A DNA stretch of 34,787 nucleotides, taken from UHGV virus genome UHGV-0075096; one strand, given 5' to 3'. Under the pieces are notes generated by a model. It was not told the origin of the DNA, did not search any database, and saw only the letters and a list, made by a program, of their open reading frames with translations. Origin of the DNA: a virus. This document shows, piece by piece, positions 2,470-34,787 of the stretch (the stretch's first letter is position 1; each line of letters starts with the position of its first letter). A program made the position numbers and the translations under genes.

Positions 2470-2598
2470 CTATTTATCGGAAGGTTTATCCTGCTGCGGT
2501 TTGTTGTTGACCATATCGCATAACATAGAGAGCAGCATTAACCGTACTTTAAAGGGAGAATGACTAAACACGCGCATACACCTCTTGAACTCATTCAT
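2470..2598 (-). CDS. mntS: small protein MntS (manganese homeostasis; RybA locus)
   Basis: Hand translation of the minus strand gives the 42-aa peptide MNEFKRCMRVFSHSPFKVRLMLLSMLCDMVNNKPQQDKPSDK; it is absent from the ORF track because it is under 60 aa. A hairpin GCGGCGT-N6-ACGCCGC (2451-2470) abuts the stop codon. Confidence 0.85.
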   Translation of the reverse strand: MNEFKRCMRVFSHSPFKVRLMLLSMLCDMVNNKPQQDKPSDK

Positions 2599-2656
2599 AA
2601 GACCTCCTGACTTGCTAATCCCATCGATCCTTGAGGGATGATTGCATTACATACAG

Positions 2657-2674
2657 ATATAGCACAGGCTATAT
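2657..2674. promoter_or_regulatory. MntR-box-like palindrome upstream of mntS
   Basis: Perfect inverted repeat ATATAGC-ACAG-GCTATAT, 59-76 bp upstream of the mntS ATG; it resembles MntR operators (CATAGC...GCTATG type). Confidence 0.5.
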
Positions 2675-2765
2675 TATAAAGCATCAACTATCTGCGAAAA
2701 ACAACAACTTACAGTGTTATCAATAAGTTACGTTGGTTAATGTCTGTGAGTATTCGGCAGTATTT

Positions 2766-3806
2766 CTAAGCTGTCGCGACATTTTTGCGACATTTTAGGG
2801 GGTTAAGTCGCACAGCATCTTCAAGGTGGCTTGGGGCGAAGTGGGCATAACGCATTGTCATGGTTATGTCAGCGTGGCCGAGAATTTTTTGCAAAACCAG
2901 AATGTTTCCGCCGTTCATCATAAAGTGGCTGGCAAATGTATGGCGCAGTACATGGGTAAGCTGGCCGGAGGGGAGTTCAATGCCTGCGCGTTCCAGAGCA
3001 GAGCGGAAAGCGTTGTAGCAGGGCTTGGGGAACAGAGCGCCTTTTGTTTCAGGTAATTCGGACAGAAGTTCATCATCAAGGGGAATTGTTCTGTTGCGCT
3101 TCCCTTTGGTTTTGACGAACGTGACTTTACCCCCGGCGATCTGGGAGCTTTTCAGCGTTGCCGCCTCATTCCACCTTGCGCCGGTAGCAAGGCAGATTTT
3201 GACAACTAATTCTAGGTACTTAACTTTGCTTCGTTTGCATTCCAGTAAAAGCCGATCAATTTCTTCGGTAGTGAGGAAAGCCATTTCGGTTTCATCAGTA
3301 CGATACTGTCTGACGTTTTCCAGTGGGTTGGGTGCTGACCATTCACCAATCCGTTTCAGTTCATTGAACATCGCTAGAAAGTAAGCATGTTCAAGGTTCA
3401 TAGTTTTCGGGGAAACCTTAGATACTCTGTTGGTGCGGGCATAATGCCCATCCAGCCTTTTAGCGCGGTAGGCTGTGAACAACTGGGCATTAAATTCTGT
3501 GGCCAGCGGGAATCCCATGCATTCCGCCGCCCAGGTCATAGCATCTTTACGCTTTTCGCCATTGCTCAAAGCTACGCCGTGGCGTTCATACCACATTGTT
3601 ATCAGATCTATTAAAGTTCGCTTGTCCTTCCCTTCACCCAGCCACGGAGCTGCGTCTACTTTCTGAAGCGTATGGTTTTCGAATGCCAGGGCTTCCCCTT
3701 TCGTGGCAAATTTTTTACGTATACGCTTCCCGTTCTTGCCATTACTGCGGTTGACGGTGTAGAAGTCGGCGATCCATTCGCCTGTAGGAAGTTTACGAAC
3801 GCTCAT
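2766..3806 (-). CDS. int: P2/186-type tyrosine integrase
   Basis: 346 aa; N-terminal region similar to P2 Int (GKNGKRIRKKF...), C-terminal catalytic motifs ATGARWNEA, HVLRHTFASH and the Y of MTMRYAHF; lies 2 bp downstream of cI as in 186. Confidence 0.9.
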   Translation of the reverse strand: MSVRKLPTGEWIADFYTVNRSNGKNGKRIRKKFATKGEALAFENHTLQKVDAAPWLGEGKDKRTLIDLITMWYERHGVALSNGEKRKDAMTWAAECMGFPLATEFNAQLFTAYRAKRLDGHYARTNRVSKVSPKTMNLEHAYFLAMFNELKRIGEWSAPNPLENVRQYRTDETEMAFLTTEEIDRLLLECKRSKVKYLELVVKICLATGARWNEAATLKSSQIAGGKVTFVKTKGKRNRTIPLDDELLSELPETKGALFPKPCYNAFRSALERAGIELPSGQLTHVLRHTFASHFMMNGGNILVLQKILGHADITMTMRYAHFAPSHLEDAVRLNPLKCRKNVATA

Positions 3807-3807
3807 T

Positions 3808-4425
3808 TTATTTTATCGTCAGAACAACGCGGCCTATGATTTTTATGTCGTCAATTCCGCAATCAAATGCCATACCAACACCGCTAACTCTGACTTTTCG
3901 TACCGGAATCCGTGTAAGAGTGCGGACGCTTGTTTTTCCTTCAACTTCAACCAACCAATCATCGTCATAAACTTCAGAATAAGACTGGTCAACAATGTAC
4001 TGAATAAGGCCATCCAGAACACAAATCGGTTGTTGCGGTAAGGGCTTGCCAGGCAGGAAGATGACTTTATCAAGCATAAGTGTGCCAGCGTCATAGAGTT
4101 GGCCATCAACAATCTTGCTGCGCGGCATTTTGAGTATGTCTAATTCATCATCATTAAATTTACGTCCCTGTCCTGTTGCCAGCCACTCCAGATTAGCGCC
4201 TGTTTCGGCTACGCATTTCACGACAATATCTGCCGGGAAAACTCCACGCTTGTAGCGTGAAGAAAGAGAACTGGCTGCCATGTCCAGATGTTCCGCGAGC
4301 TGTAACTTCTGCGTAAATCCGTAAGCCTCGATCACCCTGTCAAGAATCGGTGTGCTATCTACGTTTAGGTCGATTTTAAATGTGCTCATAGCGAATCCAT
4401 AAGTCTCGATTCGAGAAATTGCCAT
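3808..4425 (-). CDS. 186-type CI immunity repressor
   Basis: About 205 aa with an N-terminal HTH-like segment (EAYGFTQKLQLAEHLDMAASSLSSRYKRG) in the position and orientation of 186 cI, co-directional with int. Start is uncertain: ATG at 4425 chosen, alternatives GTG 4431 and ATG 4389. Confidence 0.7.
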   Translation of the reverse strand: MAISRIETYGFAMSTFKIDLNVDSTPILDRVIEAYGFTQKLQLAEHLDMAASSLSSRYKRGVFPADIVVKCVAETGANLEWLATGQGRKFNDDELDILKMPRSKIVDGQLYDAGTLMLDKVIFLPGKPLPQQPICVLDGLIQYIVDQSYSEVYDDDWLVEVEGKTSVRTLTRIPVRKVRVSGVGMAFDCGIDDIKIIGRVVLTIK

Positions 4426-4524
4426 TGACACTTCTCGAAACGCGAATTAATCTGGCTCCATATTTCGAATGTTGCCTTATATAACCCTGTATTGCCGTAC
4501 AGGTTAACTTGTGGAGTTTGCCTT
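4426..4524. promoter_or_regulatory. lysis-lysogeny switch region between divergent cI and apl starts
   Basis: 99-bp gap between the divergently oriented cI and apl start codons; in 186/P2 the lytic and lysogenic promoters and operators lie here. Individual -35/-10 elements were not resolved. Confidence 0.45.
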
Positions 4525-4746
4525 ATGCGTCCGAACATTACAATCATCATCCCAGAACCATACCTGCCTTTAGACGAGTATTGCCGCCGTACTGGCACCA
4601 ACAAAGAAACCGCCAGGAACCTGATCGAATACGGAAAATTACCTATTAAGCCGAAGGGTAAGCAGAAGAAAGGCCTGGTCGAAGTCAACATGGCCGCGCT
4701 CACTATTCAGGCTTTAAGTGAATGTGACATTTCGCTTAACGCGTAA
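4525..4746 (+). CDS. Apl/Cox-like excisionase and switch regulator
   Basis: 73-aa basic protein (MRPNITIIIPEPYLPLDEYCRRTG...) and first gene of the rightward early operon opposite cI, as 186 apl / P2 cox; GTGGAG RBS 8 nt upstream of the ATG at 4525. Confidence 0.65.
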   Translation: MRPNITIIIPEPYLPLDEYCRRTGTNKETARNLIEYGKLPIKPKGKQKKGLVEVNMAALTIQALSECDISLNA

Positions 4747-4776: not shown

Positions 4777-5280
4777 ATGTTTGATTACCAGACATCTAAA
4801 CATGCGCACTTTGATGCGGCTTGCCGAGCATTTGCAACTGAGCACAATCTTGAAGATGTGGCCGCTGCTGTTGGTATGAGGCCACAGATCTTGCGCAACA
4901 AACTGAACCCAGCGCAACCGCACCGCCTAACCTGTGATGAGCTTTTGGCTATCACGGATTACACCGAAGATGCACGTTTACTTGATGGGATGTTAGGTCA
5001 GATTAACTGCCTTCCATCCGTGCCGGTGAACAATGCCACTGAAGCCAACATGCAACTGTGTGCGCTTAGCGCCACTGCGTGTGTGGGAGCGATTGCTGGG
5101 GAAGCCGTATCAACTGGCCATATGACCGCCGCCCGCCGTGCTCAAATTTTGGATCGCGCCCGCGATGCAATCCGTAGCTTATCCGTGCTGGCTTATACCG
5201 TTGAAAGCCGTATTCACTCTGCGCCGGTTCTGGCTGCTGCGGTGGATCTGGTCACAACCCACGCCACCGGCCTGATGTGA
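4777..5280 (+). CDS. 186 CII-like transcriptional activator (CP76 family)
   Basis: 167 aa beginning MFDYQTSKHAHFDAACRAFA, the size and position of 186 cII directly after apl; GGGAGAGG RBS. Confidence 0.7.
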   Translation: MFDYQTSKHAHFDAACRAFATEHNLEDVAAAVGMRPQILRNKLNPAQPHRLTCDELLAITDYTEDARLLDGMLGQINCLPSVPVNNATEANMQLCALSATACVGAIAGEAVSTGHMTAARRAQILDRARDAIRSLSVLAYTVESRIHSAPVLAAAVDLVTTHATGLM

Positions 5281-6602: not shown

Positions 6603-6922
6603 AAATTCATGCGGTAAAAATTGCGCCAAAATATCTTGATGCAGTAGTGGCTGGTCAGAAAAAGGCCGAGCTGCGAAAAAACGATCGCGGGTATAAAACC
6701 GGTGATGTTCTTTCATTGTGCGAGTGGAAGCACGGGAAATACACCGGGCGAGAGTGGGCGGCAGTTATCACCCATGTTTTGCCGGTGAATGAAATTATCG
6801 CTGATACCGAAAATTGGGTGGTTTTATCTATCCGTTCGCTGTCACCGCTTGAAGTGCTGGAATACATCATTTCAAACGGTGTAACAGAGTCGTTAGTTGG
6901 CGGAGGTCAATATGGCCGTTAA
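6593..6922 (+). CDS. hypothetical protein, possibly ASCH/DUF3850-like
   Basis: 109 aa from the internal ATG ([40 protein letters not shown]...), a pattern reminiscent of small ASCH-fold phage proteins; overlaps the upstream gene end and the dam start. Confidence 0.4.
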
Positions 6923-7772
6923 AACTCCGCTTAAATGGGTGGGCAGCAAAGCCCGCCTCATGCCTAAGCTGCGTCCGCACCTTCCAGAAGGTAAACGCCT
7001 GGTTGAACCGTTCGCAGGTTCCTGCGCCGTCATGATGAATACGGATTATGACGAGTATCTGATCGCAGATGTGAATCCTGACCTGGTTAATCTTTATAAG
7101 GCGATGGCGTATCACACTAATGCGCTGCTGAATGAGCTGGAGATCCTGTTTTCTGCCGGTTCGTTAGGTGATGTAGAAAGCCGTGCCGTTTTCTATTACG
7201 CAGTGCGTGATGCTTTCAATCTTTCTGGTGGTAAGGCCGGTTCTGAATCTGTTGAAAATGCTGCGCGTTTCCTGTACCTGAACCGGCACTGCTTCAATGG
7301 TCTGTGTCGGTATAACCGTCGAGGCCAGTTCAACGTCCCGTTCGGTAAGTACAAAAAGCCTTATTTCCCCGCTGATGAAATCCGCGCCTTTGCTGAAAAA
7401 GCAAAACGCGCAACGTTCATTACTGCCCACTATTCAGAAACGCTTGATTTGGTTCGGGGCGGGAGTGACGTTGTTTACTGTGATCCGCCTTATCTGACTG
7501 ATGCCGACAATTTCACCGCTTACCATGAGCGCGGTTTTTCGCATATGGATCAGGGGCGGCTGGCGCGTAAACTGCGCCGTCTGGCGGAACGTGGGATTCC
7601 CGTTGTCGCGTCAAACAGCGATCTGGAAATGGTGCATTACCTGTATGCAGGGTTTGACGCCGTAAAGGTTAATGCGCCGCGTAGTGTCGGTGCGGCAGCT
7701 GCAAGCCCGAAAACGGCGGCAGAGCTGATTCTTAAATGGCCTTTACCGGCGACTTCTGAGGCCAGCGCATGA
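6912..7772 (+). CDS. dam: DNA adenine (N6) methyltransferase, Dam family
   Basis: AdoMet motif [10 protein letters not shown] and catalytic DPPY (VYCDPPY); strong resemblance to E. coli Dam over the N-terminus (KRLVEPF...NTDY...LIADVNPDL); GGAGG RBS before the ATG at 6912. Confidence 0.88.
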
Positions 7773-9790
7773 CGCTGGCAATAAACGAACAATGCTATGC
7801 CGTTGATGCCTGGAGGCGGGAAACTTTCGCACCAGGCACACCGGCAGACGCGACTATCACAGAACGCCGCCTGTGGGCTGTAAACCCGCAGGATTATGAA
7901 TGGCGATCCCGGTACCTGCATGAGATACCCGACTGGTTAGCCGGGTATTTTGGCCGTCGCTATGAAAAGCTTTTTTCTGGCCGTGACGGGCGTCGCCGTG
8001 CCAATACATTCCTGCGCAAAACAATCGGTGAGAATGTATTGCCACGTCTGCGCAAAGTGGCTGCGCGTTACTCGCTGGCCGCTGATGCTGCTGATCTTCC
8101 TTTTGGTAAGTCGCTGGAGCGCTTGCCGTCACTAGACCGTCCTGATCTTAAAAAACTGGCTGGCCAGGTATCTGGCTGGATTTCCCAGTCACTTTATGAC
8201 TTCACCGAACAGTTTGATTCCGGCACTGACGACGCCAGAGAGCTGCATCGCCGCACTCTGGAATCTTACCGCCATCTTTGTGCCTGTTGCCTGATGCTGA
8301 ATAACCAGCCGCCGTACTGGACTGAACATGAGGCCAATGAAGGTCAACTGGAAATGCGTAAGGCGGAATCCGGGATACTGCGCATGATGGCGCCGGAATG
8401 GTGGTACCTGCGTCTTAAACGTGCGCGTGATACGCAGCGCGAGCACATGGCCATTGCGGTGGGACAGGTGCAAAAAGCGGCCAGCGCTTATGTATCCCGC
8501 AAAACACTGGGTGAATGGATAGACCAGAAAAAGCGGAATCTGGAGTTCTTTAAAAAGTTTGATCTGCTGAATGATGAGGGGCTGCGCATTGCACTGGACA
8601 GCATGGTGCACCGCAGCGTTGCAAATCCGGCGATCCGTCGATGTGAACTAATAGTAAGAATGCGAGGGTTTGAAGATATGGCCAATGAAGAAGGGCTGGC
8701 CGGTGAGTTTTACACTATCACCGCGCCATCACGTTTCCATGCGGTTCACAGCAAAGGGGGCTTTGTATCGCAATGGGATGGAAGTACGCCGCAGGATACC
8801 CAGCGCTATTTATGCGGCGTATGGGCAAAAGCGCGTGCAGCGATCTCGCGTGCTGGTATCCATGTATTTGGGTTTCGGGTTGTTGAGCCTCACCATGACG
8901 GGACACCGCACTGGCATATGTTGCTTTTTATGCGTCCGCAGGACGTGGACACGGTACGCGATATTCTTTGTTATCACGCCAGAATTACCGATTCTGAAGA
9001 ACTGCAATCTGAAAAGGCGCTGAAGGCGCGTTTTCATGTTGAAGCTATCGATCCCGCCAAAGGTTCGGCCACGGGCTACATCGCGAAATACATTTCAAAA
9101 AATATTGATGGTTTTGCGCTGGATGGTGAGCAGGACGAAGAAACCGGCGAAAACCTGCGTGATATGGCTAAGTCCGTTTCCGCGTGGGCTTCACGCTGGC
9201 GTATTCGCCAGTTTCAGCAGATTGGTGGTGCGCCGGTAACCGTCTGGCGTGAGCTGCGTCGGTTGCGGGATCAGGTACTGACAGATCGCAGAATGGATGC
9301 GGTTCTGGCCGCTGCTGATGTCGGGGACTGGGCTGCATATACCCAGGCGCAGGGAGGTGCACTGGTTGCCCGCCGTGATCTGGTTGTTCGTCTGGCCTAT
9401 GAAATTACGGAACAGGGCAACGAATACGCGGAGGACGTGCAGCGCGTACAGGGTGTTTATTCTCCTTTGATTCCTGATTCAGAAGTTTGCACCCGTCTGG
9501 TTAAGTGGCAAAAGGTTGCGAAGTTGGCCGAAGCGCCAGCGGAGGCGGGTTTTTCTGGCGGCAACGCCGCCCCTTGGAGTTCTGTCAATAACTGTACGGA
9601 GGGGGGAACCCGCAGACGGTTAAAACTGGAATTACGCAGTCGGGGTTTTGAGGGTTCCGATGAAGAAATAGCCATTCTCCTGCGGGGTAGTGGTTTGATA
9701 TTTGGTCAGGGGGCACTGATTTACCGCAATGGGCGGTTGAAGGAAACACGAAACGAACCATTGCAGGAGCTTTGGCCGGGGTGGTTATAG
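7769..9790 (+). CDS. replication initiation endonuclease (P2 gpA / 186 A family, rolling-circle)
   Basis: 673 aa carrying the paired-tyrosine active-site motif GYIAKYISKN and the HxH-like PHWHMLLF motif; lies last in the early operon as in P2/186. Confidence 0.85.
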   Translation: MTLAINEQCYAVDAWRRETFAPGTPADATITERRLWAVNPQDYEWRSRYLHEIPDWLAGYFGRRYEKLFSGRDGRRRANTFLRKTIGENVLPRLRKVAARYSLAADAADLPFGKSLERLPSLDRPDLKKLAGQVSGWISQSLYDFTEQFDSGTDDARELHRRTLESYRHLCACCLMLNNQPPYWTEHEANEGQLEMRKAESGILRMMAPEWWYLRLKRARDTQREHMAIAVGQVQKAASAYVSRKTLGEWIDQKKRNLEFFKKFDLLNDEGLRIALDSMVHRSVANPAIRRCELIVRMRGFEDMANEEGLAGEFYTITAPSRFHAVHSKGGFVSQWDGSTPQDTQRYLCGVWAKARAAISRAGIHVFGFRVVEPHHDGTPHWHMLLFMRPQDVDTVRDILCYHARITDSEELQSEKALKARFHVEAIDPAKGSATGYIAKYISKNIDGFALDGEQDEETGENLRDMAKSVSAWASRWRIRQFQQIGGAPVTVWRELRRLRDQVLTDRRMDAVLAAADVGDWAAYTQAQGGALVARRDLVVRLAYEITEQGNEYAEDVQRVQGVYSPLIPDSEVCTRLVKWQKVAKLAEAPAEAGFSGGNAAPWSSVNNCTEGGTRRRLKLELRSRGFEGSDEEIAILLRGSGLIFGQGALIYRNGRLKETRNEPLQELWPGWL

Positions 9791-9867
9791 GTGTGCATGT
9801 GTGTGTAACACATTCATTTGTCAGTAGATGGCAGGAAATTAAATTTCACAATTCGTGCTTTAAGGTG

Positions 9868-9887
9868 TACTGTATGTATATCCAGTT
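9868..9887. promoter_or_regulatory. LexA (SOS) box-like operator
   Basis: TACTGTATGTATATCCAGTT matches the E. coli LexA consensus TACTGTATATATATACAGTA at 17 of 20 positions with the CTG-N10-CAG core intact; a TTCACA -35-like hexamer sits at 9845-9850. Confidence 0.55.
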
Positions 9888-9909
9888 ATTTATTGCTTGT
9901 GGGGGCTAA

Positions 9910-10116
9910 ATGGATCTTTTGGAGGCGTCGGCACAGCTGGAACGCATTGAGTTATTGGCCAAAATTGCCCATGTTTACGAAAGTAACCAGAGAGAAAAAA
10001 CAATCGCTTTGGCCTGGATTGGAGAGCTTGCGGGAGAGGTTCGCGAAATGGTTAAAAAGGAAGGGCAACGCCCCCAGAATGGGGGCATTTCAGGCGGCGG
10101 GAGTCGCTTTCAGTAG
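9910..10116 (+). CDS. small SOS-regulated protein, candidate antirepressor (positional analogue of 186 Tum)
   Basis: 68-aa ORF (MDLLEASAQLERIELLAKIAHVYESNQREK...) 23 bp downstream of the LexA-like box and after gene A, where 186 carries LexA-controlled tum. Function inferred from context only. Confidence 0.4.
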   Translation: MDLLEASAQLERIELLAKIAHVYESNQREKTIALAWIGELAGEVREMVKKEGQRPQNGGISGGGSRFQ

Positions 10117-10359
10117 GTCTAATGCCATCTGGCGCTGATCGGGTGAAAGTGCATTCAGTATTTTTTGCACCATCGCATCACCCGTTTTAGCGCTGGGGCT
10201 GAGAGTGTGGGAGAACGTCAGATTCATAACAAACGTGTGGCCACACTCAACATCTGAACAGGCGCAGTAAATATCCGCAATTTGCCGGTGCTTCCTGTTC
10301 GTTTTACGAATAACAGCCTTTGAGCCGCATTCCGGGCATTCGATTTTCAGAACTCGCAT
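10090..10359 (-). CDS. ogr: Ogr/Delta-family zinc-finger late transcription activator
   Basis: From the internal ATG: MRVLKIECPECGSKAVIRKTNRKHRQIADIYCACSDVEC... has the exact C-x2-C-x22-C-x4-C spacing of P2 Ogr / 186 B. Confidence 0.8.
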   Translation of the reverse strand: MRVLKIECPECGSKAVIRKTNRKHRQIADIYCACSDVECGHTFVMNLTFSHTLSPSAKTGDAMVQKILNALSPDQRQMALDLLKATPAA

Positions 10360-10409
10360 ATTCCATGCTCCAGCTGTTAAATGATGCCTGGATTTTAGCC
10401 TGTTTCGCC

Positions 10410-11471
10410 TCATGCCGCACCCTTATCCGTTGATTCTGTGTAACTTAAATCAAAGTTAAGGTGTAGCCTTTCCGGTATTTCGGGATCATTGTTAACGGCC
10501 AGCATAAAACGGCGCTGGATGGGGGCAATTTCGCTTTTCTTGTAAATGCGTTCAGCCTTTTCAACATCCCCCAGTCCGGCAGTGTTCTGCGGGACAATAC
10601 CGGCGAGGCCAGCAGGGAAACGGTGAGCGTTCAGAATGTCCTGGGCGCTGATGTTCTTGATGTTGGCAAATTCATCCTTTGCGGAAATATCCCCCATTTC
10701 AATGAATTTGATGGCGTCGCCGTCTCCACCGGGAATGTTTACAAGGATGGTGGAGAAGTTACCGATCCCTTTGCTGTCACGCAGCTGCTGTTCAATTTCT
10801 TCCTCCATTTCGTCCGTCATGCTGGGATCGCGGGTATAAAGAATACCGCCTGTGTGCGCACCATTGTGGTAATAGCGGCGTCGGAAAATGACCGCTTCAC
10901 TGTTAAGTAACGCGGAATGCACACCGCCTATGTAGTCCGGCAGCCCGTAGATATGCTGTTGCGGGTCATACATTTTGATGAAGATAATATCTTCTTCTGG
11001 CCATACCTGCGGTTCCCCTTCCTGTAACACCACGTAGTCACCAGGCTTATCCAGGGCGTTATCTCTGACTTTGCGGCGGCGAATATACAGACCGGGCAAG
11101 GGTTCAAGTGCGATCACGTCACCCCAGCCGTTACGAATTTTGGCAATCGCAATATCCCCAAAGGTTATATAGTCAAACGCTGCCGCTTCCAGCTGGTCGT
11201 GAATAAGCCCGCCCCCCTGGTAGTCTGAAACAATCATGTTTTTACGGGCGTGAATGATGCCGCCGTGCTGACCGTTAAGATTAATCAGTTGCGCGAGTGC
11301 CAGCCGGTCAATCGGCTGGGTGAAGTGATCGGCGGCATTGTCGTACCAGATATCACGGTAATCTGTGCCGGTAGTCAGAACTGGTTCAGGTTTGCCGAAT
11401 GTGATAATGCTCATCTTTTTTGATTTGTCGCCGCGCTGGTCGCGCTTAACAAAGCGTTTCTTTTTACTCAT
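10410..11471 (-). CDS. portal protein (P2 gpQ homologue)
   Basis: 353 aa, P2 Q-like size and sequence character; start overlaps the end of the terminase gene (11468-11471). Confidence 0.88.
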   Translation of the reverse strand: MSKKKRFVKRDQRGDKSKKMSIITFGKPEPVLTTGTDYRDIWYDNAADHFTQPIDRLALAQLINLNGQHGGIIHARKNMIVSDYQGGGLIHDQLEAAAFDYITFGDIAIAKIRNGWGDVIALEPLPGLYIRRRKVRDNALDKPGDYVVLQEGEPQVWPEEDIIFIKMYDPQQHIYGLPDYIGGVHSALLNSEAVIFRRRYYHNGAHTGGILYTRDPSMTDEMEEEIEQQLRDSKGIGNFSTILVNIPGGDGDAIKFIEMGDISAKDEFANIKNISAQDILNAHRFPAGLAGIVPQNTAGLGDVEKAERIYKKSEIAPIQRRFMLAVNNDPEIPERLHLNFDLSYTESTDKGAA

Positions 11472-13243
11472 GCTGCCTCTTTCCTTACACCCCAGCGGGA
11501 TTTAGGTTTGTTTTCATAATTAAGGGGTTCGTTATGCAGACCGTGGGTAATCGCCCAGAACGCCTCCGCGTGGCCGGTATCCTGGCTGCGGTCAGCGACA
11601 AACGTCATGGCGTTGCCGCTTTGTGTGGTGGTTCGGCGCACAGACATAAAGCTGGCGGCGATCTCTTTCAGGTTTTTATCCCACTCAATACGCTGGCTTT
11701 CCACCACGTCCACCGCTTTCAGTACCAGCTTATTTTTGGTGTTCAGGTCGTAACGAATAGGGACGGCCACGCGCATGGCAAAATGCTGAATGTTGTCAAA
11801 AACACCCTGGCCAATGCCGGTAACGTCCACCCCCAGATATGTGAAGTTGTATTTTTTGAACAACTGCTCGATCTGTTTTGCCTGGTACCGGAAGTTCATG
11901 CCTTTCCAGTAAATCACCTTCAGAACGCGGAACTTCTCCACGGCGAGCATCGGTGGGGCGATGATGACAAAACAGGACAAATCCCCGCTGCGAGCCGGGT
12001 CAAAGCCGCCCCACACTGGCCTGTCACCGAATGGCCGCGCTGCATCTGGGTTGTGATCCTGCCAGGTGTCGATTTCAACGCCGCAGGCTTCCAGGTCGGA
12101 AAAGCTGAAAACGGAATCTTTGCTGTCAACGAACACGCACATATAGAGCATGTTAAAAGTGGCGTCGTTGTAGCGGTTGCGAAGTTTCTCGATGTTCGCC
12201 AGGTTGAAACCGCCCGCAATGGCATCTTCCATCGTAATGACGTAGCGCCATTGCCCATCCGGGCAGAGTCGCCCGCCGTCACGCATTTCGTTAAAGGAAG
12301 GAAACTTAATGGCCGCACGTTTTTTACTGCCCTGTTTCCACTCATCGCCCGTCCAGAACGGGTACGCCTGGTGCGTTTTTGCCGATGGCGTTGAAAAATA
12401 GGTGGTACGCCACTTGTCATGCGTGGCCATTGCGCTGGCCACTTCGTTAAGTTTTGCAAAGTTTGGTACCCAGAAATATTCGTCACAGTACAGGTGGCCA
12501 CTGTAGGACTGGGCGGTGTTTTTGTTGGTGGAGAGAAAACGCAGTTCTGCGCCGTTGCTTAAGCGGATCGGGTTACCGGTCAGCGTAATACCGAAATACT
12601 GCTCTGCAATATTCACGATGTAAGACCGGAACACTTCAGCCTGAGCCTTTGACGCTGACAGAAAGATTTGCGGATCGCCGGTCATCACCGCGTTTTCAAA
12701 CGCTTCAAACGCAAAATACCAGGTCGCACCGATCTGGCGGCTTTTCAGGATATTCCTGACAAGCTGGCCAATGTTATTGCGCAGGTGTTTCTGATATTCA
12801 AAAAGATGTTCCTCAGCCCATGCGTCAAAGTCCTCCTGCGTCAGCGAGGTAATATCGTTTTTCTTGTACTTCCGTTTGCTGCGCGGTTCGTCGTCATTGT
12901 TGTCCCGCGCAGCTGCTTGCCCGGAACTCTGACCGCTGGCCATTTTCTCTTTGTGTTTATTACTCTGCGCACGCAGTTTCGTGGCATGAGCAATGAGCAT
13001 GTCCATTTCTTTCAGGTCGAGATCGGTTTTGTTATCGCGGCTGGCCAGCAGTTGGTAACGGCGTTCAATCGCTTCCTCTGTGCTTTCAAAACTGAGCAAA
13101 TCCGCCCAGCTGTATTTCTCCGCCCAGTAGTAAACGATCCGCGCATTCGGCAGATTTAATTCAGATGCGATTTCCTTTGGCGTATAGCGGCGCAGATAAA
13201 GTGCGCGAACAACGCCTTTTAATTCTTCAGAGTATTTAGCCAT
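11468..13243 (-). CDS. terminase large (ATPase) subunit (P2 gpP homologue)
   Basis: 591 aa (P2 P is 590 aa); divergent from the O-N-M-L operon as in P2. Confidence 0.9.
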   Translation of the reverse strand: MAKYSEELKGVVRALYLRRYTPKEIASELNLPNARIVYYWAEKYSWADLLSFESTEEAIERRYQLLASRDNKTDLDLKEMDMLIAHATKLRAQSNKHKEKMASGQSSGQAAARDNNDDEPRSKRKYKKNDITSLTQEDFDAWAEEHLFEYQKHLRNNIGQLVRNILKSRQIGATWYFAFEAFENAVMTGDPQIFLSASKAQAEVFRSYIVNIAEQYFGITLTGNPIRLSNGAELRFLSTNKNTAQSYSGHLYCDEYFWVPNFAKLNEVASAMATHDKWRTTYFSTPSAKTHQAYPFWTGDEWKQGSKKRAAIKFPSFNEMRDGGRLCPDGQWRYVITMEDAIAGGFNLANIEKLRNRYNDATFNMLYMCVFVDSKDSVFSFSDLEACGVEIDTWQDHNPDAARPFGDRPVWGGFDPARSGDLSCFVIIAPPMLAVEKFRVLKVIYWKGMNFRYQAKQIEQLFKKYNFTYLGVDVTGIGQGVFDNIQHFAMRVAVPIRYDLNTKNKLVLKAVDVVESQRIEWDKNLKEIAASFMSVRRTTTQSGNAMTFVADRSQDTGHAEAFWAITHGLHNEPLNYENKPKSRWGVRKEAA

Positions 13244-28544: not shown

Positions 28545-30247
28545 TGATGAAACCAGTAAAACGCCTTTACCTTTCAACGGATGAAGTTCACCTGGTGGAT
28601 GCCAGCCTGGTACTGGAGCTGAACAGCTGCGGCCGGGGCTTCATCACCGCAGAGACAACAACCGATTACACCGGAAAACTGGTGCGGCTGGATGTAGGGT
28701 ATACCGATCTGCTTTTGCGCTGGTTTACGGGGTACGTGGAGCGATCGCAGCCCGCAGAAAACGGTTTTCAGCGTCTGTTCATTCGTGAGCTGGTAGGTGT
28801 GTTTGAAAGGATGTGGCCGTGCTCATTTCAACATCCAACTTTACGCGAGGTTGCCAGCTGGCTGGAAGAAAACAGTGGTATCTCGGTCAGTGTGCCTGAT
28901 GCACAGTACAGCGATACCCCCATCCCACATTTTACCCATAACGGTACCGGCTATCAGTTGCTGAACAATCTGGGAAGGGCGTTCAGTATCCAGGATTACA
29001 TCTGGTACCAGTTGCCTGATGGTTCGCTTTACGTCGGTGGCGCAGAAAAGTCACTGTTTGCCGGTCGTCCCGTAGAAATCCCGTCAGAGTTCAGCCAGGG
29101 GGCTGCTGGTGGTAACTCTGTGACATTACCAGTGATCCAGACTATGCGGCCAGGGGTGGAGATGAACGGTGAACGCGTGACTAAAGTTCACCTGACTAAT
29201 GACACGATGGCGATCACATGGACGCCGAGAAACCGCGCAACGGGTAAACCTTTGCAGAAAACACCGGCGCAACGGCAGATTGAAAGCCATTACCCGGAAC
29301 TGGCATCCGGGCTTCATTTGCCAAAGACGGCCAGAGTCGTGGCGCATTCAGAGCCAGTAAAAAGCGGTAACTTTGCCGATCCCTTCCGGCCACGTTACGC
29401 CGTGGACGTGCAACTGCTTGACGCAGACGGAAACCCGGACAATCAGACGCCTGTTTACTCAGCGGTGCCGCTGCCGGTACCAATGGCCGGGAATGATTCA
29501 GGTATGTTTCAGTTCCCGCCTGAAGGGACGCTGGTTGAGGTCGCATTCACAGGAGGCAGACCGGATAAACCCTTTATCAGGCAGACGCTGCCGGATGGCA
29601 CCAGTCTGCCGGACGTTAAACCCGGTGAGCAATTACAGCAGCAGCGGGAAGAAGTATCCCTGAGGGTGACTCAGGCGGGTGACTGGGTAAGGCAGACCGA
29701 TCAGACCATCAGCGAAACATCAATGGTGCGAACCGTAAAAGCCGATACAGAACAGCGCGAACTGGTCAGCCGTGAAACCACGGTGAAAGCCACGGATAAA
29801 ACCACGGTACTGGGAACCGCCACATTGCTGGCCGGAGCCATCCAGCAGGTAAGCGCCGGTGATTATAGCCAGGCGGTGAAAGGTAACAGGCTGGCCAGTA
29901 TTGAAGGAAACGAAGAAACGGACATAGCAGGACAGCAGTCCACTAAAGTGGGCGGTGCTGTAGCCGTGGAGGTTGGCGAAAGTCTGACAGAGAAGATTGC
30001 CGCACTGCGTAAATCAGTGGCTGCTGGCGGTCAGCAGGTCATGGGGGCAACTGTCCATATTGGCAGTGAGAGCATCAACGCCCTGACCATGATGCTGGAT
30101 ACCATTGATTTACTGGCAGAGCTTGCGCAGCAATGCGCGAACCATTCGCACCCCACCGTTGGAACTCCAACCAATGCCGCCGCGTTCACACTGACGGCGA
30201 CGAAAGCCGGGCAGACCCGGAGCAAATACCAGAATATAATTGCCTGA
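28544..30247 (+). CDS. putative baseplate hub/central spike protein (gpD/gpV-like)
   Basis: 567 aa, last gene of the tail module and followed by a strong terminator; the C-terminal region contains CANHSHPTVG (an HxH motif as in spike apex domains). Assignment is inferred from position and motifs. Confidence 0.45.
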   Translation: MMKPVKRLYLSTDEVHLVDASLVLELNSCGRGFITAETTTDYTGKLVRLDVGYTDLLLRWFTGYVERSQPAENGFQRLFIRELVGVFERMWPCSFQHPTLREVASWLEENSGISVSVPDAQYSDTPIPHFTHNGTGYQLLNNLGRAFSIQDYIWYQLPDGSLYVGGAEKSLFAGRPVEIPSEFSQGAAGGNSVTLPVIQTMRPGVEMNGERVTKVHLTNDTMAITWTPRNRATGKPLQKTPAQRQIESHYPELASGLHLPKTARVVAHSEPVKSGNFADPFRPRYAVDVQLLDADGNPDNQTPVYSAVPLPVPMAGNDSGMFQFPPEGTLVEVAFTGGRPDKPFIRQTLPDGTSLPDVKPGEQLQQQREEVSLRVTQAGDWVRQTDQTISETSMVRTVKADTEQRELVSRETTVKATDKTTVLGTATLLAGAIQQVSAGDYSQAVKGNRLASIEGNEETDIAGQQSTKVGGAVAVEVGESLTEKIAALRKSVAAGGQQVMGATVHIGSESINALTMMLDTIDLLAELAQQCANHSHPTVGTPTNAAAFTLTATKAGQTRSKYQNIIA

Positions 30248-30259
30248 CCATGATAACAC

Positions 30260-30282
30260 GCCCGCATAATGCGGGCTTTTTT
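30260..30282 (+). terminator. rho-independent terminator of the tail operon
   Basis: GCCCGCA-TAA-TGCGGGC hairpin followed by TTTTTT, 13 bp after the stop at 30247. Confidence 0.85.
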
Positions 30283-30692
30283 ATACCCTTCTCCAGACGC
30301 AGCAGAACGCACCCTCAGCACTTTAGGCAACAAATTAACCCAACTCAACACACATAAAAGATCGTGCGCATGGCGCTGCGTTGGCGCGACGATGCACCGA
30401 CAAAATAAATCTTTCGCAGACAAAAACGGCGCTACACCGCACCCGCCTGCGGTTTCTGGATCTGGAAAATTTTTCTGTTTTATTTTTCTACAAAACAGAC
30501 CGCCAGACCGCGCCGCTGCTGGCGGCTTTGCGGAGAACTGAAACTGAAATGATTGAAAAGGATTTCACTTTTTTTCAGTGAAAAGGATCTGTGAAGGATC
30601 GATGGGAAAATATAACTATCAGAATATAAAAGAGAAATTGAATTTTAGGTGGCGTTTGTGGATCGTTAGTTAAAGGGGGGGGGATATTCTGT

Positions 30693-30724
30693 AAAAAAGC
30701 CCGCGACATCAGATGTGGCGCGGG
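30693..30724 (-). terminator. rho-independent terminator downstream of the glycosyltransferase-like gene
   Basis: On the minus strand, hairpin CCCGCGCCACATC-A-GATGTCGCGGG (one 2-nt bulge) followed by TTTTTT; 40 bp beyond the stop at 30764. Confidence 0.65.
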
Positions 30725-30763
30725 ATGGATAGAAATTTATTCTTATAGAACAACTGAAAAAAA

Positions 30764-31480
30764 TTACTTTAAACTGAGTTTAAAATTTTTGAATTTACCA
30801 TACAGGGTATCGCGTACAGAAAAGGAAGGAACCCAATTGAATCCTGTTCGCCATGGGCGAGGACTACCGTGAAAGCATACAACTGAAACATCATCAGGAA
30901 CTTTGCCAGTAGCATAATCTGATGCCAAGTCAGGGTTGTAACCTATCATTTTACGTGTGGCTATATGGCATTTGTAACTAACAACAGATCCGGGAATTAT
31001 ATCTTGCCACAATACAGGTTTCATGACGCTACCCAGAAACCCCTGATCACCCCATTTATCTTCTGTTTGGCATTCATGCATATTTTTTTCGGGGTCAGTC
31101 CAGAACGCATCCCAAACATATTGTTTGATAGACGCAGGAATGAACATAATGGATGAGTTAACCCTGGAAGGGTGGTTAAACTCCCGCAGCATAGTGAACT
31201 CTTTCGCCGCATCAAAGATTTTGATATCACCAGTTATGACAACATCAACGTCAAAATAAAGCAGATCCTTATCACCTATTACCGGATGGTTTGGATTAAA
31301 AAGCTCAATCTTAGACCACCAACCTGGAAGGTTGTGCATTAACGGTGCGGTTTCAACACCAGGGATACTTCCAGCATCAGTTAAGCAAATTGAAGGTATG
31401 CCTTTAAATTGGCTATGCAGCCATTGTGCGTGTTTGGGGGTAAATTCTTTACCGCATTTAAGGACGGATACAATCAGCAT
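30764..31480 (-). CDS. putative GT-A fold glycosyltransferase (GT8-like motifs)
   Basis: 238 aa; DxD-type motif (LLYFDVDVVITGD) and a C-terminal H-x2-G-x2-(K/R)-P-W motif (FHGSPRPW) characteristic of retaining GT8 enzymes; GC visibly lower than the prophage core. Confidence 0.45.
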   Translation of the reverse strand: MLIVSVLKCGKEFTPKHAQWLHSQFKGIPSICLTDAGSIPGVETAPLMHNLPGWWSKIELFNPNHPVIGDKDLLYFDVDVVITGDIKIFDAAKEFTMLREFNHPSRVNSSIMFIPASIKQYVWDAFWTDPEKNMHECQTEDKWGDQGFLGSVMKPVLWQDIIPGSVVSYKCHIATRKMIGYNPDLASDYATGKVPDDVSVVCFHGSPRPWRTGFNWVPSFSVRDTLYGKFKNFKLSLK

Positions 31481-31660
31481 ATGGGAATCCCATTCTTTAG
31501 AGCAATAGTGTGCATTTTTTGAACATCGGCAATACTAAAATAAATAGTCAGGGCATAATTTTCTTAGGTAAGAGTCATGATGCCTCATGCCATTCCTTAC
31601 GTAAAGCTAGGCAGACTCAGCATAATGAGGGGACAAAAAGGGGACGCTGACCACTACAAA

Positions 31661-31689
31661 CAAAAAAGCCACTCCGTCAGAAGTGGCTT
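31661..31689 (-). terminator. rho-independent terminator (minus strand)
   Basis: On the minus strand, AAGCCACT-N8-AGTGGCTT hairpin followed by TTTTTT. Confidence 0.6.
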
Positions 31690-31843
31690 AATTATATGAT
31701 TATAAAGCTAAAATTTGGTGGCCCCTTGGACTTGAACCAGCGCCCGGGCGATTATAAGTCTTATGGTGTAACCTTTTGATATTTATATATAAATTTTATT
31801 TTTATGTGAATTTTAAGGATCTCTAACCGCTTTATTTTTGGCT

Positions 31844-31874
31844 AAAAAACCCGCAGTTGTAGCAATGATGCGGG
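31844..31874 (-). terminator. rho-independent terminator closing the minus-strand cargo operon
   Basis: On the minus strand, CCCGCA...TGCGGG hairpin followed by TTTTTT (plus-strand A6 at 31844-31849); about 220 bp downstream of the last long ORF. Confidence 0.55.
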
Positions 31875-32093
31875 TTGAGTTAGTCTTTAAAACTGAAATT
31901 GATCAGCCATAGCGTTCATAGGTAGCTGCGTATGCATTAACGTTTTTTAGGTGGTGGGGCTACTTGCTGCGTTTGCTGCGTTTGCCGTGGTGGTTGATAA
32001 CCATTGTTCTGCTGATTTGGCCTACTTGATGGTTGATATCCCTCATTTATAGGTTGCCAGCCATCATATTTAGTATTGTTTGCCGGTTTTTCT

Positions 32094-32744
32094 TCAGCCA
32101 TTTTTTACCTCACTATTGTTGGGAGAATGTAATTTTACCTCAATAAACTCAACACTTTCTATTTCATTAGTCAATATTATTATGCCTAATGTATCAGCTA
32201 GTTCGTGATCGAAATCGCCATTCTCATCAAGCGCCCAATGTTTCTCAAGATAGATTTGTTCGGGTTCTGGACTATTGGATGCAAATGAGTCACTTCCATA
32301 AAAACCACCATATTTTTTACCGTTTTTTAGTGTTACCAATACCCAGCAGCGTTGTCTGGTTGAGAAGAAGTAGTCCCAAGAGCGCCCTATAGGGTGTGGA
32401 AGAATATTTTTGACTTTTTCCCAGTTACGAATTTTTAGCAATGCAACAGGTAATAGTACAGGTATTACAATTAAAACTAAAAAGTAAAAAATGTAATATA
32501 AAATAGGGTGTTTCAAAAAAATGTCATTTGTTTCAATTAGATAAATTGGTATTAAAAGAAATGAAAAATTTATGCAACTATATGAAACAACGTCAATTAA
32601 AACTTTTGATGTATCCAAATCAATTGATGGGTGAAATAGTCTGTAAACTCTCATGCTGATAAATCCGGGCATAATGAACAGTACAAATAAAAACAATTTC
32701 CCCTTCTCTAAAATGTCCATTTTAATTCCTTTTGCATAAATCAA
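32094..32744 (-). CDS. uncharacterised membrane protein (3 predicted TM helices plus a roughly 100-aa soluble C-terminal domain)
   Basis: 216 aa; hydrophobic segments [26 protein letters not shown] and [20 protein letters not shown]; its ATG overlaps the upstream stop in an ATGA coupling; AT-rich codon usage. Confidence 0.6.
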
Positions 32745-33766
32745 TCATCTTTATTCATCAAATCATGGTGATATCCACAAACACCTCCAAAATCTTGTTC
32801 GTCTTGGGAAAGTGTTGTGCCACATATATAACATTCATTATAGTCAACTTCATAACCACACCACCGACATTTTTGCTCAGCTAGAATAAATGTATCATGG
32901 TTACAGTTAAAACATTCTTCATAAGTCGGTTCATCGCCATCAGGAGGCCAATAAAAAAACTCATCTTCAAAAACCTGCATAAGCAAAGGCGTAAATAAAT
33001 TGATATTCCCGCATGCAACGCACAAATACTTAAAATCGCTTTCAAAATCTTCTACTGTCAGACCTTCTTCTAAACTATCTTGTGAGGCTTTTATAAGTTT
33101 AGAACCACATTTATCGCAGCAACATTCGGGTAAAAATTCCATCATGCCTTCTGGAATACCTGCATACTCCCATGTTGACCTACACTCATATAATTTCGAA
33201 TTATAAAAAGTTTTGTGTTCCAGCATTGTACTCCAGGAACTGCCTAAAACATCTTGTGGAATTTTATCAAGTTCATTTGTTATGAAACTTTCAAGAACTG
33301 GAAATAAATCGGCGACAAAACCAGCAAGCTCGCCGAAAGTGTTTTGAGGATGTAAGTGTTCAAGATGATTTCGGCAATCCTGAAGTTTTTCAATGGCTGG
33401 CCAATCAACTTTTATGTTGAATTTATGAAAGCGCTCCTTTATGCCACAAACATCAATAGTCGATTTTTTAAACTTTCCTTCAGGTTTCCATTCTACCCCA
33501 CCTTTCCCATCGGGGTGGGGAAGCATTTTAGACGGTGGGTTATGTATTAGCACATACGCATGCTCAGGCGTGTCAACAGATTTGGCGATTTTATATTTGA
33601 ATAGTAATAATAAACCAGCGTAAAGATTACGTATGGATGAAAGAGTTCGCAATGAGTTATCAGGTTGTTGGGATAACTGGAAATCTTCAATCCCAAGTTG
33701 TATTGAAGCAATTGCGTTGTCATATAACTTATCCGCATCTAAGGTTAGTGAGGTTGTGTTACTCAT
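32741..33766 (-). CDS. uncharacterised protein with C-terminal multi-CxxC zinc-ribbon-like region
   Basis: 341 aa; C-terminal third contains CCCDKC, CVAC, CFNC, CRWC, CYIC and CGYHH; N-terminal domain contains an R-N-x3-H motif (RNHLEH); AAGGA RBS. Confidence 0.6.
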
Positions 33767-33840
33767 TGTTTGCTCTATCCTTAGTAAATAAAGTTGGATT
33801 ACATATTATGAAAAAAAGTTGGTGCATTCAATCAGTCATT

Positions 33841-34737
33841 TTAAAAGTTTTTCCCTGACCGCGCTAATGCTTTTTCTTCGTTAAAGTAACCAAGTATATA
33901 ATCTCTTATCTCTACACCTAATTTTTCACTTAAGTAAGGGATGTGGTATTCTGAAATATAAAATTGAATGTTGCAATTATCTATGAAATCTTCTTCATAA
34001 AGTTCATGTTTTATGACTGGAGTGTAATTATATCTGTTTTGAAAGATAACATATGGAATATTAAAAATGTGTTCTTCTTTATAGGTTTTATTTTTGAATT
34101 TACTTAACAAAATATCTAACCCGTCAGGATTTGAACTTAGTAAATCTTCAACTTCTTTACGATGTTTTTGTTCAAATAAATCAGTTAAGATATTTCTGTA
34201 GATAGGATTGATAGTACAAAGCGTAGTGGTTTTATCTAAACGATGTAATGGTAAAACTATCTCACCATCCAAAAGTCCCAAGAATGCTTTATTGTGTTCA
34301 TCATCGGTAGATCTTTCCAGTTGTATTGTGCAGTCATTATCTTTCAGCTTTAATAATATGGCTTTGGCAAAATGAGAGTAATCATTGAAACTGATTTTCA
34401 ATAGCTGTATTTTTTTAAGATCATTTCTTCGTTTTTCTTCTTCTTTTTTATCTAATGCTAGTTTGTTCTGTCTGACGATAAGTTTTTCTTTAGTAAATCG
34501 AATGAATAAGTCTACTATACCAAATAGTATGGATGATAGTAATGCACCAAGTGAAAAGCCTATAATTGTTATTAATGTAATAGAAAGTTCATTAGGTATT
34601 TTAAATTGGCCTAGTTTGGGTTCTACTAAAACCCAGCAACCGATGATTGAGCCAGCAATAATTAATAATCTTAGAGAAGAACGGAACGAAACTAAGTTAG
34701 TTAGGTGTGATAAAACGGTAGATAACGGGTCAGTCAT
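33841..34737 (-). CDS. uncharacterised membrane protein (2 N-terminal TM helices, Lys/Glu-rich coiled-coil-like linker, soluble C-terminal domain)
   Basis: 298 aa from the ATG at 34737, which has a strong AGGAGA RBS 7 nt upstream; TM segments LLIIAGSIIGCWVLV and ITLITIIGFSLGALLSSILFGIV; about 33% GC. Confidence 0.6.
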   Translation of the reverse strand: MTDPLSTVLSHLTNLVSFRSSLRLLIIAGSIIGCWVLVEPKLGQFKIPNELSITLITIIGFSLGALLSSILFGIVDLFIRFTKEKLIVRQNKLALDKKEEEKRRNDLKKIQLLKISFNDYSHFAKAILLKLKDNDCTIQLERSTDDEHNKAFLGLLDGEIVLPLHRLDKTTTLCTINPIYRNILTDLFEQKHRKEVEDLLSSNPDGLDILLSKFKNKTYKEEHIFNIPYVIFQNRYNYTPVIKHELYEEDFIDNCNIQFYISEYHIPYLSEKLGVEIRDYILGYFNEEKALARSGKNF

Positions 34738-34787
34738 GTAGGTGTCTCCTGACTTTTGGCTACAAATTATCACATTTTAGAGAAAGT

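Follow-up and report, generated by a model that had tools for sequence, protein, structure and literature searches.

A LexA-controlled tumA-type gene as the probable SOS induction module of a 186-type prophage

The locus at positions 9845–10116 of the virus genome UHGV-0075096 is best explained as the SOS induction module of a 186-type (ESSI-2/Quadragintavirus-like) prophage, in which a small LexA-repressed gene would encode a TumA-type antirepressor of the phage repressor CI and thereby induce the prophage upon an SOS response. We put the probability of this reading at roughly 80%. The whole stretch of DNA that was analyzed, referred to as the window, comprises 34,787 nt of one strand. LexA binding, SOS-dependent expression, and antagonism of CI are ascribed to the locus by analogy with the phages 186, PSP3, and Fels-2. 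The kind of system is already known, namely a LexA-controlled Tum-type antirepressor, the split tumA form included. What is particular to the window is that the module is cut down to tumA alone, is arranged tail-to-tail with ogr, and encodes a protein that is covered by no Pfam or NCBIfam model. The locus is placed between replication gene A on the left and a convergent Ogr/Delta gene on the right, and its features are the following:

7769–9790, plus strand: replication gene A (ORF listing; annotated in relatives as a replication endonuclease or nicking protein)
9845–9850, plus strand: −35 hexamer TTCACA of a tum-type (p95-like) promoter, the same as the annotated −35 of 186 p95
9868–9873, plus strand: −10 hexamer TACTGT, within the LexA box and identical to the annotated −10 of 186 p95
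9868–9887, no strand assigned: LexA (SOS) box TACTGTATGTATATCCAGTT (17/20 consensus matches; weight-matrix score 26.6 bits)
9901–9905, plus strand: Shine–Dalgarno-like GGGGG, 4 nt before the ATG (sequence reading; GGAGG or GGGAGG there in relatives)
9910–10116, plus strand: tumA-like gene, 68 aa, homologue of the N-terminal half of Tum without the DinI half (ORF listing, phrog_698, BLASTP, hhalign, dN/dS)
10067–10089, minus strand: 10-bp G+C-rich hairpin, directly after the ogr stop and inside tumA codons 53–60 (fold prediction)
10090–10116, no strand assigned: tail-to-tail overlap, 27 nt long, between tumA and the convergent ogr/Delta gene (ORF coordinates; the same in most close relatives)
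10090–10413, minus strand: Ogr/Delta zinc-finger late activator (Pfam Ogr_Delta, 9e-20; phrog_603)
10410–11471, minus strand: portal gene Q, which follows ogr
11468–13243, minus strand: terminase gene P, which follows Q

An earlier, sequence-only reading of this DNA had pointed to a 20-mer matching the LexA consensus at 17 of 20 positions, to a TTCACA −35-like hexamer upstream of it, and to a 68-aa ORF 23 bp downstream. All three elements were found. The box TACTGTATGTATATCCAGTT departs from the consensus TACTGTATATATATACAGTA at three of its 20 positions, and the hexamer at 9845–9850 is separated by a 17-nt spacer from the −10, which is covered by the box. Between the box and the ATG at 9910 there are 22 nt, which is the same arrangement as the one described earlier. 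When up to three mismatches were allowed, the consensus gave a single match in the window and none in 100 dinucleotide shuffles. The earlier reading had also proposed scoring the site with a LexA weight matrix. The matrix used here was compiled from 28 literature SOS boxes of E. coli and is approximate, its training sites scoring between 12.6 and 27.0 bits. With this approximate matrix, the site at 9868–9887 scores 26.6 bits, close to the training maximum, compared with 11.6 bits for the next best site in the window and 19.9 bits for the best of 100 shuffles. Based on the consensus scan and on the matrix scores relative to the shuffles, the window has a single strong LexA box, at 9868–9887.

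Conservation of the upstream region was assessed in 88 related loci, 8 of which came from genomes representative of their species and 80 of which came from viral contigs. Two of these loci are cut at the ORF start, leaving 86 that keep the upstream DNA and are informative. A LexA box of 19–29 bits, located 14–27 nt before the start codon, is present in 85 of the 86, which is in line with the proposed LexA-box control of the small gene. The central bases of the box vary among relatives, and CTGT and ACAG (TACTGT, ACAGT) are kept. In an alignment of 67 distinct upstream regions, anchored on the box, the LexA box is the most conserved upstream element, followed by a TTTCACA −35 that lies 17 nt upstream of the box and is kept in most of these regions. 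The box, the Shine–Dalgarno sequence, and the start codon are conserved across genera. The single exception is locus L021 (IMGVR_UViG_2791354791_000011), in which an IS element is inserted within the LexA box. This element (positions 6677–7960 of L021) encodes a 406-aa transposase and leaves the right half-site alone attached to tumA. In this natural variant the induction gene is cut off from its SOS promoter, and the prophage is probably locked.

Judged by its substitution pattern, the ORF at 9910–10116 is a real, constrained gene. The median dN/dS over codons 1–44 is 0.11 among 47 distinct homologous sequences, compared with 1.1–1.9 in the two alternative same-strand frames. An alternative 106-aa ORF that spans the box (9818–10138) was rejected because dN/dS exceeds 1 in the other frames. 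An AF2 model of the 68-aa protein has helices at residues 3–21 and 27–53, with pLDDT values of 85–95, followed by a disordered, Gly-rich tail (residues 54–68). No solved structure was found for TumA. The tail sequence is entirely different in those relatives that carry cargo between tumA and ogr. Because the tail changes whenever cargo is inserted, it is without constraint of its own and, given this variability, the functional unit is the two-helix core.

The sequence-only reading had described the protein as not obviously related to Tum and, hence, as possibly a different solution to the same regulatory problem. Neither description holds. A BLASTP alignment of residues 4–41 with Tum residues 5–42 gave 32% identity and 58% positives over 38 aa (E 1e-5 in a single comparison). 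The ORF matches phrog_698 (2e-22), phrog_8554 (4e-11), and phrog_1993 (8e-4), and the first 61 residues of Tum match the same three families (1993, 1e-22; 8554, 1e-11; 698, 2e-5). When a profile of 18 homologues was used as the hhalign query, Fels-2 STM2728 (62 aa) was matched with 96% probability (E 4e-9) and Tum residues 6–43 with E 4e-5, and the match to PSP3 TumA was weak (E 0.024). The Pfam DinI domain covers Tum residues 87–145 only. Tum of 186 matches both DinI models (Pfam PF06183 and NCBIfam NF007893), whereas the window ORF matches neither of them, nor any other Pfam or NCBIfam model. A tblastn search with PSP3 TumB and the Tum C terminus was negative for dinI-like sequences, both in the window and in all ESSI-2-type loci examined. 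Taken at the level of sequence comparison, the window ORF is a homologue of the N-terminal, antirepressor half of Tum that lacks just the DinI-like half. Based on this homology and on the split tumA genes of PSP3 and Fels-2, we classify it as a TumA-type gene, that is, as the same solution without the DinI half.

Previous work has described Tum as a fusion of an antirepressor and a DinI sequence, with Fels-2 and PSP3 carrying the halves of Tum split by a stop codon, and the upstream gene of PSP3 has been stated to have antirepressor activity (personal communication, cited via Bunny et al. 2002) (PMC3121763; Lemire et al. 2011). The PSP3 record accordingly lists tumA (60 aa, “UV induction of prophage”) and tumB (DinI), and the Fels-2 record lists STM2728 followed by a DinI-family gene. 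PSP3 TumA and Fels-2 STM2728 resemble the window gene in being stand-alone genes for 60–62 aa that lie after gene A and have a LexA box upstream; by hhalign, the Fels-2 protein is clearly homologous to the window protein and PSP3 TumA marginally so. Directly behind this short gene, both phages have a separate dinI-like gene (TumB in PSP3 and STM2726.1 in Fels-2), whereas such a gene is absent from the window and from the ESSI-2-type loci examined.

For phage 186, the record annotates p95 after gene A, with a −35 TTCACA, a −10 TACTGT, and a putative LexA site, TACTGTATGTTTATACAGTA, that begins at the −10. The 186 p95–tum region and the window locus share the position after gene A, both hexamers, and the LexA box beginning at the −10, which agrees with the earlier assignment of the ORF to the position of the 186 tum locus. 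The two phages also share the CI type, a gene in the Apl position, and the CII switch. They differ in the promoter spacer (18 nt in 186 p95 versus 17 nt) and in the distance from the box to the start codon (18 versus 22 nt). Moreover, 186 Tum comprises 146 aa and has a DinI-like C-terminal domain, with internal starts giving DinI-like products, whereas the window protein comprises 68 aa. Downstream of tum, 186 has orf97, whereas the window ORF has no orf97 and abuts the convergent ogr.

Among other Peduoviridae, the short tum-like genes of the Yersinia phages vB_YenM_06.16-2 and vB_YenM_324, of ESSI2_ev040 (gp27), and of Cronobacter ESSI-2 belong to the same family as the window gene and occupy the same position. 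Two of these phages, vB_YenM_324 and ESSI2_ev040, have the same A–tumA–ogr–Q–P layout as the window, and in Yersinia phage vB_YenM_06.16-2 the 60-aa CDS is already labelled “tum protein.” The Gifsy GfoA/GftA, Fels-1 FsoA, and N15 AntC proteins follow the same logic, in which a small LexA-repressed antirepressor inactivates a non-cleavable repressor (PMC3121763). These proteins, however, stem from lambdoid or N15 phages with different repressors, and they are likened to the window gene by logic, not by sequence. The operons of the Gifsy prophages begin with dinI. No experimental study of the window protein or its close relatives was found in the literature searched.

The genes to the left of gene A place the locus in a 186-type prophage, with the gene order int–CI–(apl-position ORF)–CII…A–tumA-like ORF. 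The immunity and integration region contains the following:

2766–3806: integrase gene, adjoining CI
3808–4431, minus strand: 186-type CI repressor, 207 aa, the presumed target of TumA (Pfam Phage_CI_repr and Phage_CI_C; PDB 2fjr)
4525–4746: apl-position ORF, for which a Pfam search gave no match
4777–5280: CII, CP76 family (Pfam Phage_CP76)

The CI protein matches the crystal structure of 186 CI (PDB 2fjr) with an E value of 2e-39, and both of its Pfam domains are built on 186 CI. No Peptidase_S24 or autocleavage domain was detected in CI with Pfam. A scan for CTGT-N8-ACAG with one mismatch gave 19 matches in the window, compared with 10.5 expected, one of which is perfect (4487–4502). This perfect match was considered as a second LexA site and rejected, since its weight-matrix score of 9.7 bits falls inside the shuffle range. 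It is part of a perfect palindrome, CCTGTA-N6-TACAGG, at 4485–4504, between the CI/early promoter region and the apl-position ORF, and TTCGAGAA-like repeats occur just upstream, at 4405–4460. Given its low score of 9.7 bits as a LexA site, the palindrome probably serves a phage protein, for example Apl or CI, as an operator.

The part of the window between about 4670 and 30436 is colinear, at about 96% identity, with ESSI2_ev015 and ESSI2_ev040, two deposited Escherichia phage genomes of 30.6 kb (Peduoviridae, Quadragintavirus), and by this colinearity the prophage looks full length. The integrase–CI module (2500–4670) gives no alignment to these otherwise 96%-identical genomes, as if the region for immunity and integration had been swapped in mosaic fashion. 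The left flank (1–2198) encodes an Ail/Lom-type outer membrane protein (44–565) and a sulfatase-family protein (615–2198), and the leftmost 2.2 kb of the window look like host DNA. The comparison with ESSI2_ev015 places the right end of the prophage near 30440, and in the right flank (30764–34787) the ORFs gave no Pfam matches, except for one DUF6338 protein (32094–32744). A search for att sites gave no direct repeats of at least 12 nt between 2150–2800 and 30200–31600, and no tRNA genes were found. With respect to the broader claim of the sequence-only reading, the SOS-inducible antirepressor in a 186-type prophage has gained from the CI, CII, and integrase genes, the colinear ESSI2 genomes, and the conserved box, and only the supposed unrelatedness to Tum has been lost.

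In the mechanism that we propose, host LexA would bind 9868–9887 in the lysogen, covering the −10 and the likely transcription start, and would keep the promoter silent. Upon DNA damage, activated RecA would lead to self-cleavage of LexA, allowing the TTCACA-17-TACTGT promoter to fire and the 68-aa protein to be made, with its predicted two-helix hairpin of about 50 residues and disordered tail. By analogy with the N-terminal half of Tum and with PSP3 TumA, this protein would bind or sequester the 186-type CI and keep it off its operators. Loss of CI would derepress the early lytic promoter, and the prophage would be induced. Since CI has no detected peptidase domain, induction most plausibly needs an antirepressor.

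At its right end the locus differs from what is usual in P2 and 186, where the ogr-type gene follows the tail genes and cos follows the portal gene. In the window, ogr (10090–10413, minus strand) lies downstream of portal gene Q, the two genes overlapping by 4 nt. The ORF at the usual place of ogr (30269–30541) has no Pfam match, and 10090–10413 is the sole Ogr homologue among the screened ORFs. The space after the portal gene is taken up by ogr and tumA without any non-coding stretch. A search of the whole window for the P2/186 cohesive-end pattern, allowing up to three mismatches, gave no match, and blastn-short with the 186 cos region gave chance words only. The hairpin at 10067–10089 is terminator-like for the P–Q–ogr transcript. 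A scan for terminator-like structures chose an overlapping alternative stem (10075–10061), and the hairpin stem is retained, with an altered loop, in ESSI2_ev040 and S.Kent. On the plus strand, the terminator scan gave a weak candidate at 10470 and no clear terminator between it and the end of the ORF; hence, read-through antisense to ogr is possible and could be an added effect of the SOS promoter.

In some relatives, cargo of 0.7–1.3 kb with a single unrelated ORF (344, 263, or 198 aa) lies exactly between tumA and ogr, for example in L058 (8298–9332), L076 (2153–2944), and L042 (8237–8833), and also in L046, L070, L072, and L074. The tumA–ogr junction looks like a hotspot for moron or defence genes, which is empty in the window.

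Four other explanations of the locus were weighed, and all of them are weak. One is that the product is SOS-controlled and has a target other than CI, acting on RecA, the SOS response, or a host function, with induction proceeding by another route. The 186 record annotates the shorter tum products as modulating SOS induction, which would fit such a role. These products, however, are the DinI-like C-terminal part of Tum, which is absent in the window, whereas the homology found here is to the N-terminal part, which has been assigned to antirepression (PMC3121763). Furthermore, the screened ORFs of the window included no further antirepressor candidate, a second LexA site is absent, and CI is without a detected autocleavage domain. 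The other point in favor of a different target is that TumA alleles do not co-vary with CI alleles. The Spearman correlation between TumA and CI distances is 0.18 for the N-terminal domain and 0.24 for the C-terminal domain of CI, compared with 0.38 between TumA and the adjacent 3′ end of gene A. Identical TumA cores are paired with CI proteins that are 53–100% identical in the N-terminal, DNA-binding domain and 66–100% identical in the C-terminal domain, and one TumA allele co-occurs with three to five CI classes below 90% identity. This is the main soft spot for CI as the target, as closer covariation would be expected of a strictly cognate antirepressor. TumA may recognize a surface that is common to these CI proteins, or recombination between the tumA and CI genes may have obscured the pairing. 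All in all, we regard a target other than CI as unlikely.

The remaining three explanations have even less in their favor. Considering that the ORF is less than half as long as Tum and that its 3′ end runs into ogr, it might be a decaying, non-functional remnant of a full-length tum that has lost the DinI half. The dN/dS of 0.11 over codons 1–44, the conservation of the box, Shine–Dalgarno sequence, and start codon across genera, the absence of any Tum-length member from the 77 clusters of homologues (36–112 aa), and the split functional tumA genes of PSP3 and Fels-2 all speak against decay, which we consider very improbable. An equally slim chance is given to the idea that the LexA promoter mainly makes antisense RNA into ogr–Q–P, hampering late expression, with the ORF being incidental. 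The transcript does converge on ogr, with no clear plus-strand terminator before the candidate at 10470, but purifying selection is strong and specific to the frame, the Shine–Dalgarno sequence and ATG are conserved, and the promoter–ORF unit is unchanged in relatives that have 0.7–1.3 kb of cargo between tumA and ogr. Finally, the LexA-like 20-mer could be a chance match without a regulatory role, its right half-site being CCAG instead of ACAG. CCAG half-sites are present in genuine E. coli SOS boxes, such as those of uvrB, uvrD, and dinI. The absence of matches in 100 shuffles, the score of 26.6 bits against a shuffle maximum of 19.9 bits, and above all the presence of the box in 85 of 86 informative loci leave this explanation almost no credibility, and the positional conservation of the box effectively refutes it. 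The LexA-repressed TumA-type antirepressor of CI is, therefore, retained as the best explanation of the locus.

A word-based search gave 66 close homologues of the protein, nearly all of 66–68 aa, from E. coli, Salmonella, Citrobacter, Cronobacter, Pluralibacter, and Raoultella, which are named “hypothetical protein” or are unnamed. An exhaustive profile search extended the family to 77 clusters at 50% identity, with lengths of 36–112 aa and none of the length of Tum. The locus is present in about 25 of 5426 complete E. coli genomes, and also in phages or prophages of Salmonella, Citrobacter, Cronobacter, Enterobacter, Kluyvera, and Yersinia. In the PGAP/RefSeq annotation of the E. coli genomes, the ORF is a “hypothetical protein” or is not called at all, though the loci are about 96–97% identical, and the three related PHROG families (698, 8554, and 1993) are all labelled “unknown function.” In ESSI2_ev040 (L001, 4165–4425), the ATG assigned to the deposited 86-aa CDS of gp27 directly adjoins the LexA box, upstream of the promoter −10. 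This gene is probably mis-started, the real start being a downstream codon that gives a Fels-2-like protein beginning MQDLF. The tumA allele of ESSI2_ev040 is about 43% identical to that of the window, and the flanking A and ogr genes are 93–100% identical.

The weak covariation with CI leads to a further idea, which we put forward tentatively and consider rather doubtful, namely that the short TumA of this clade is a generalist antirepressor for many 186-type CI proteins, with its transcript reading antisense into ogr. If this were true, TumA could, like the Gifsy antirepressors, cross-induce heteroimmune 186-like prophages residing in one cell; some of the LexA-controlled antirepressors of the Gifsy, Fels-1, and N15 group act in trans on several prophages (PMC3121763). 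With respect to Tum itself, the family narrows the region likely to bear its antirepressor activity to about 50 residues. While the understanding of the mechanism is unchanged, this core of about 50 residues offers a minimal construct for mapping the unsolved Tum–CI interface. For annotation, the findings yield a simple rule, by which a short two-helix ORF with a LexA box upstream, located after gene A of a phage with a 186-type CI, is to be read as a tumA-type gene. The window prophage and its relatives are thereby marked as predicted to be SOS-inducible via the 186 route.
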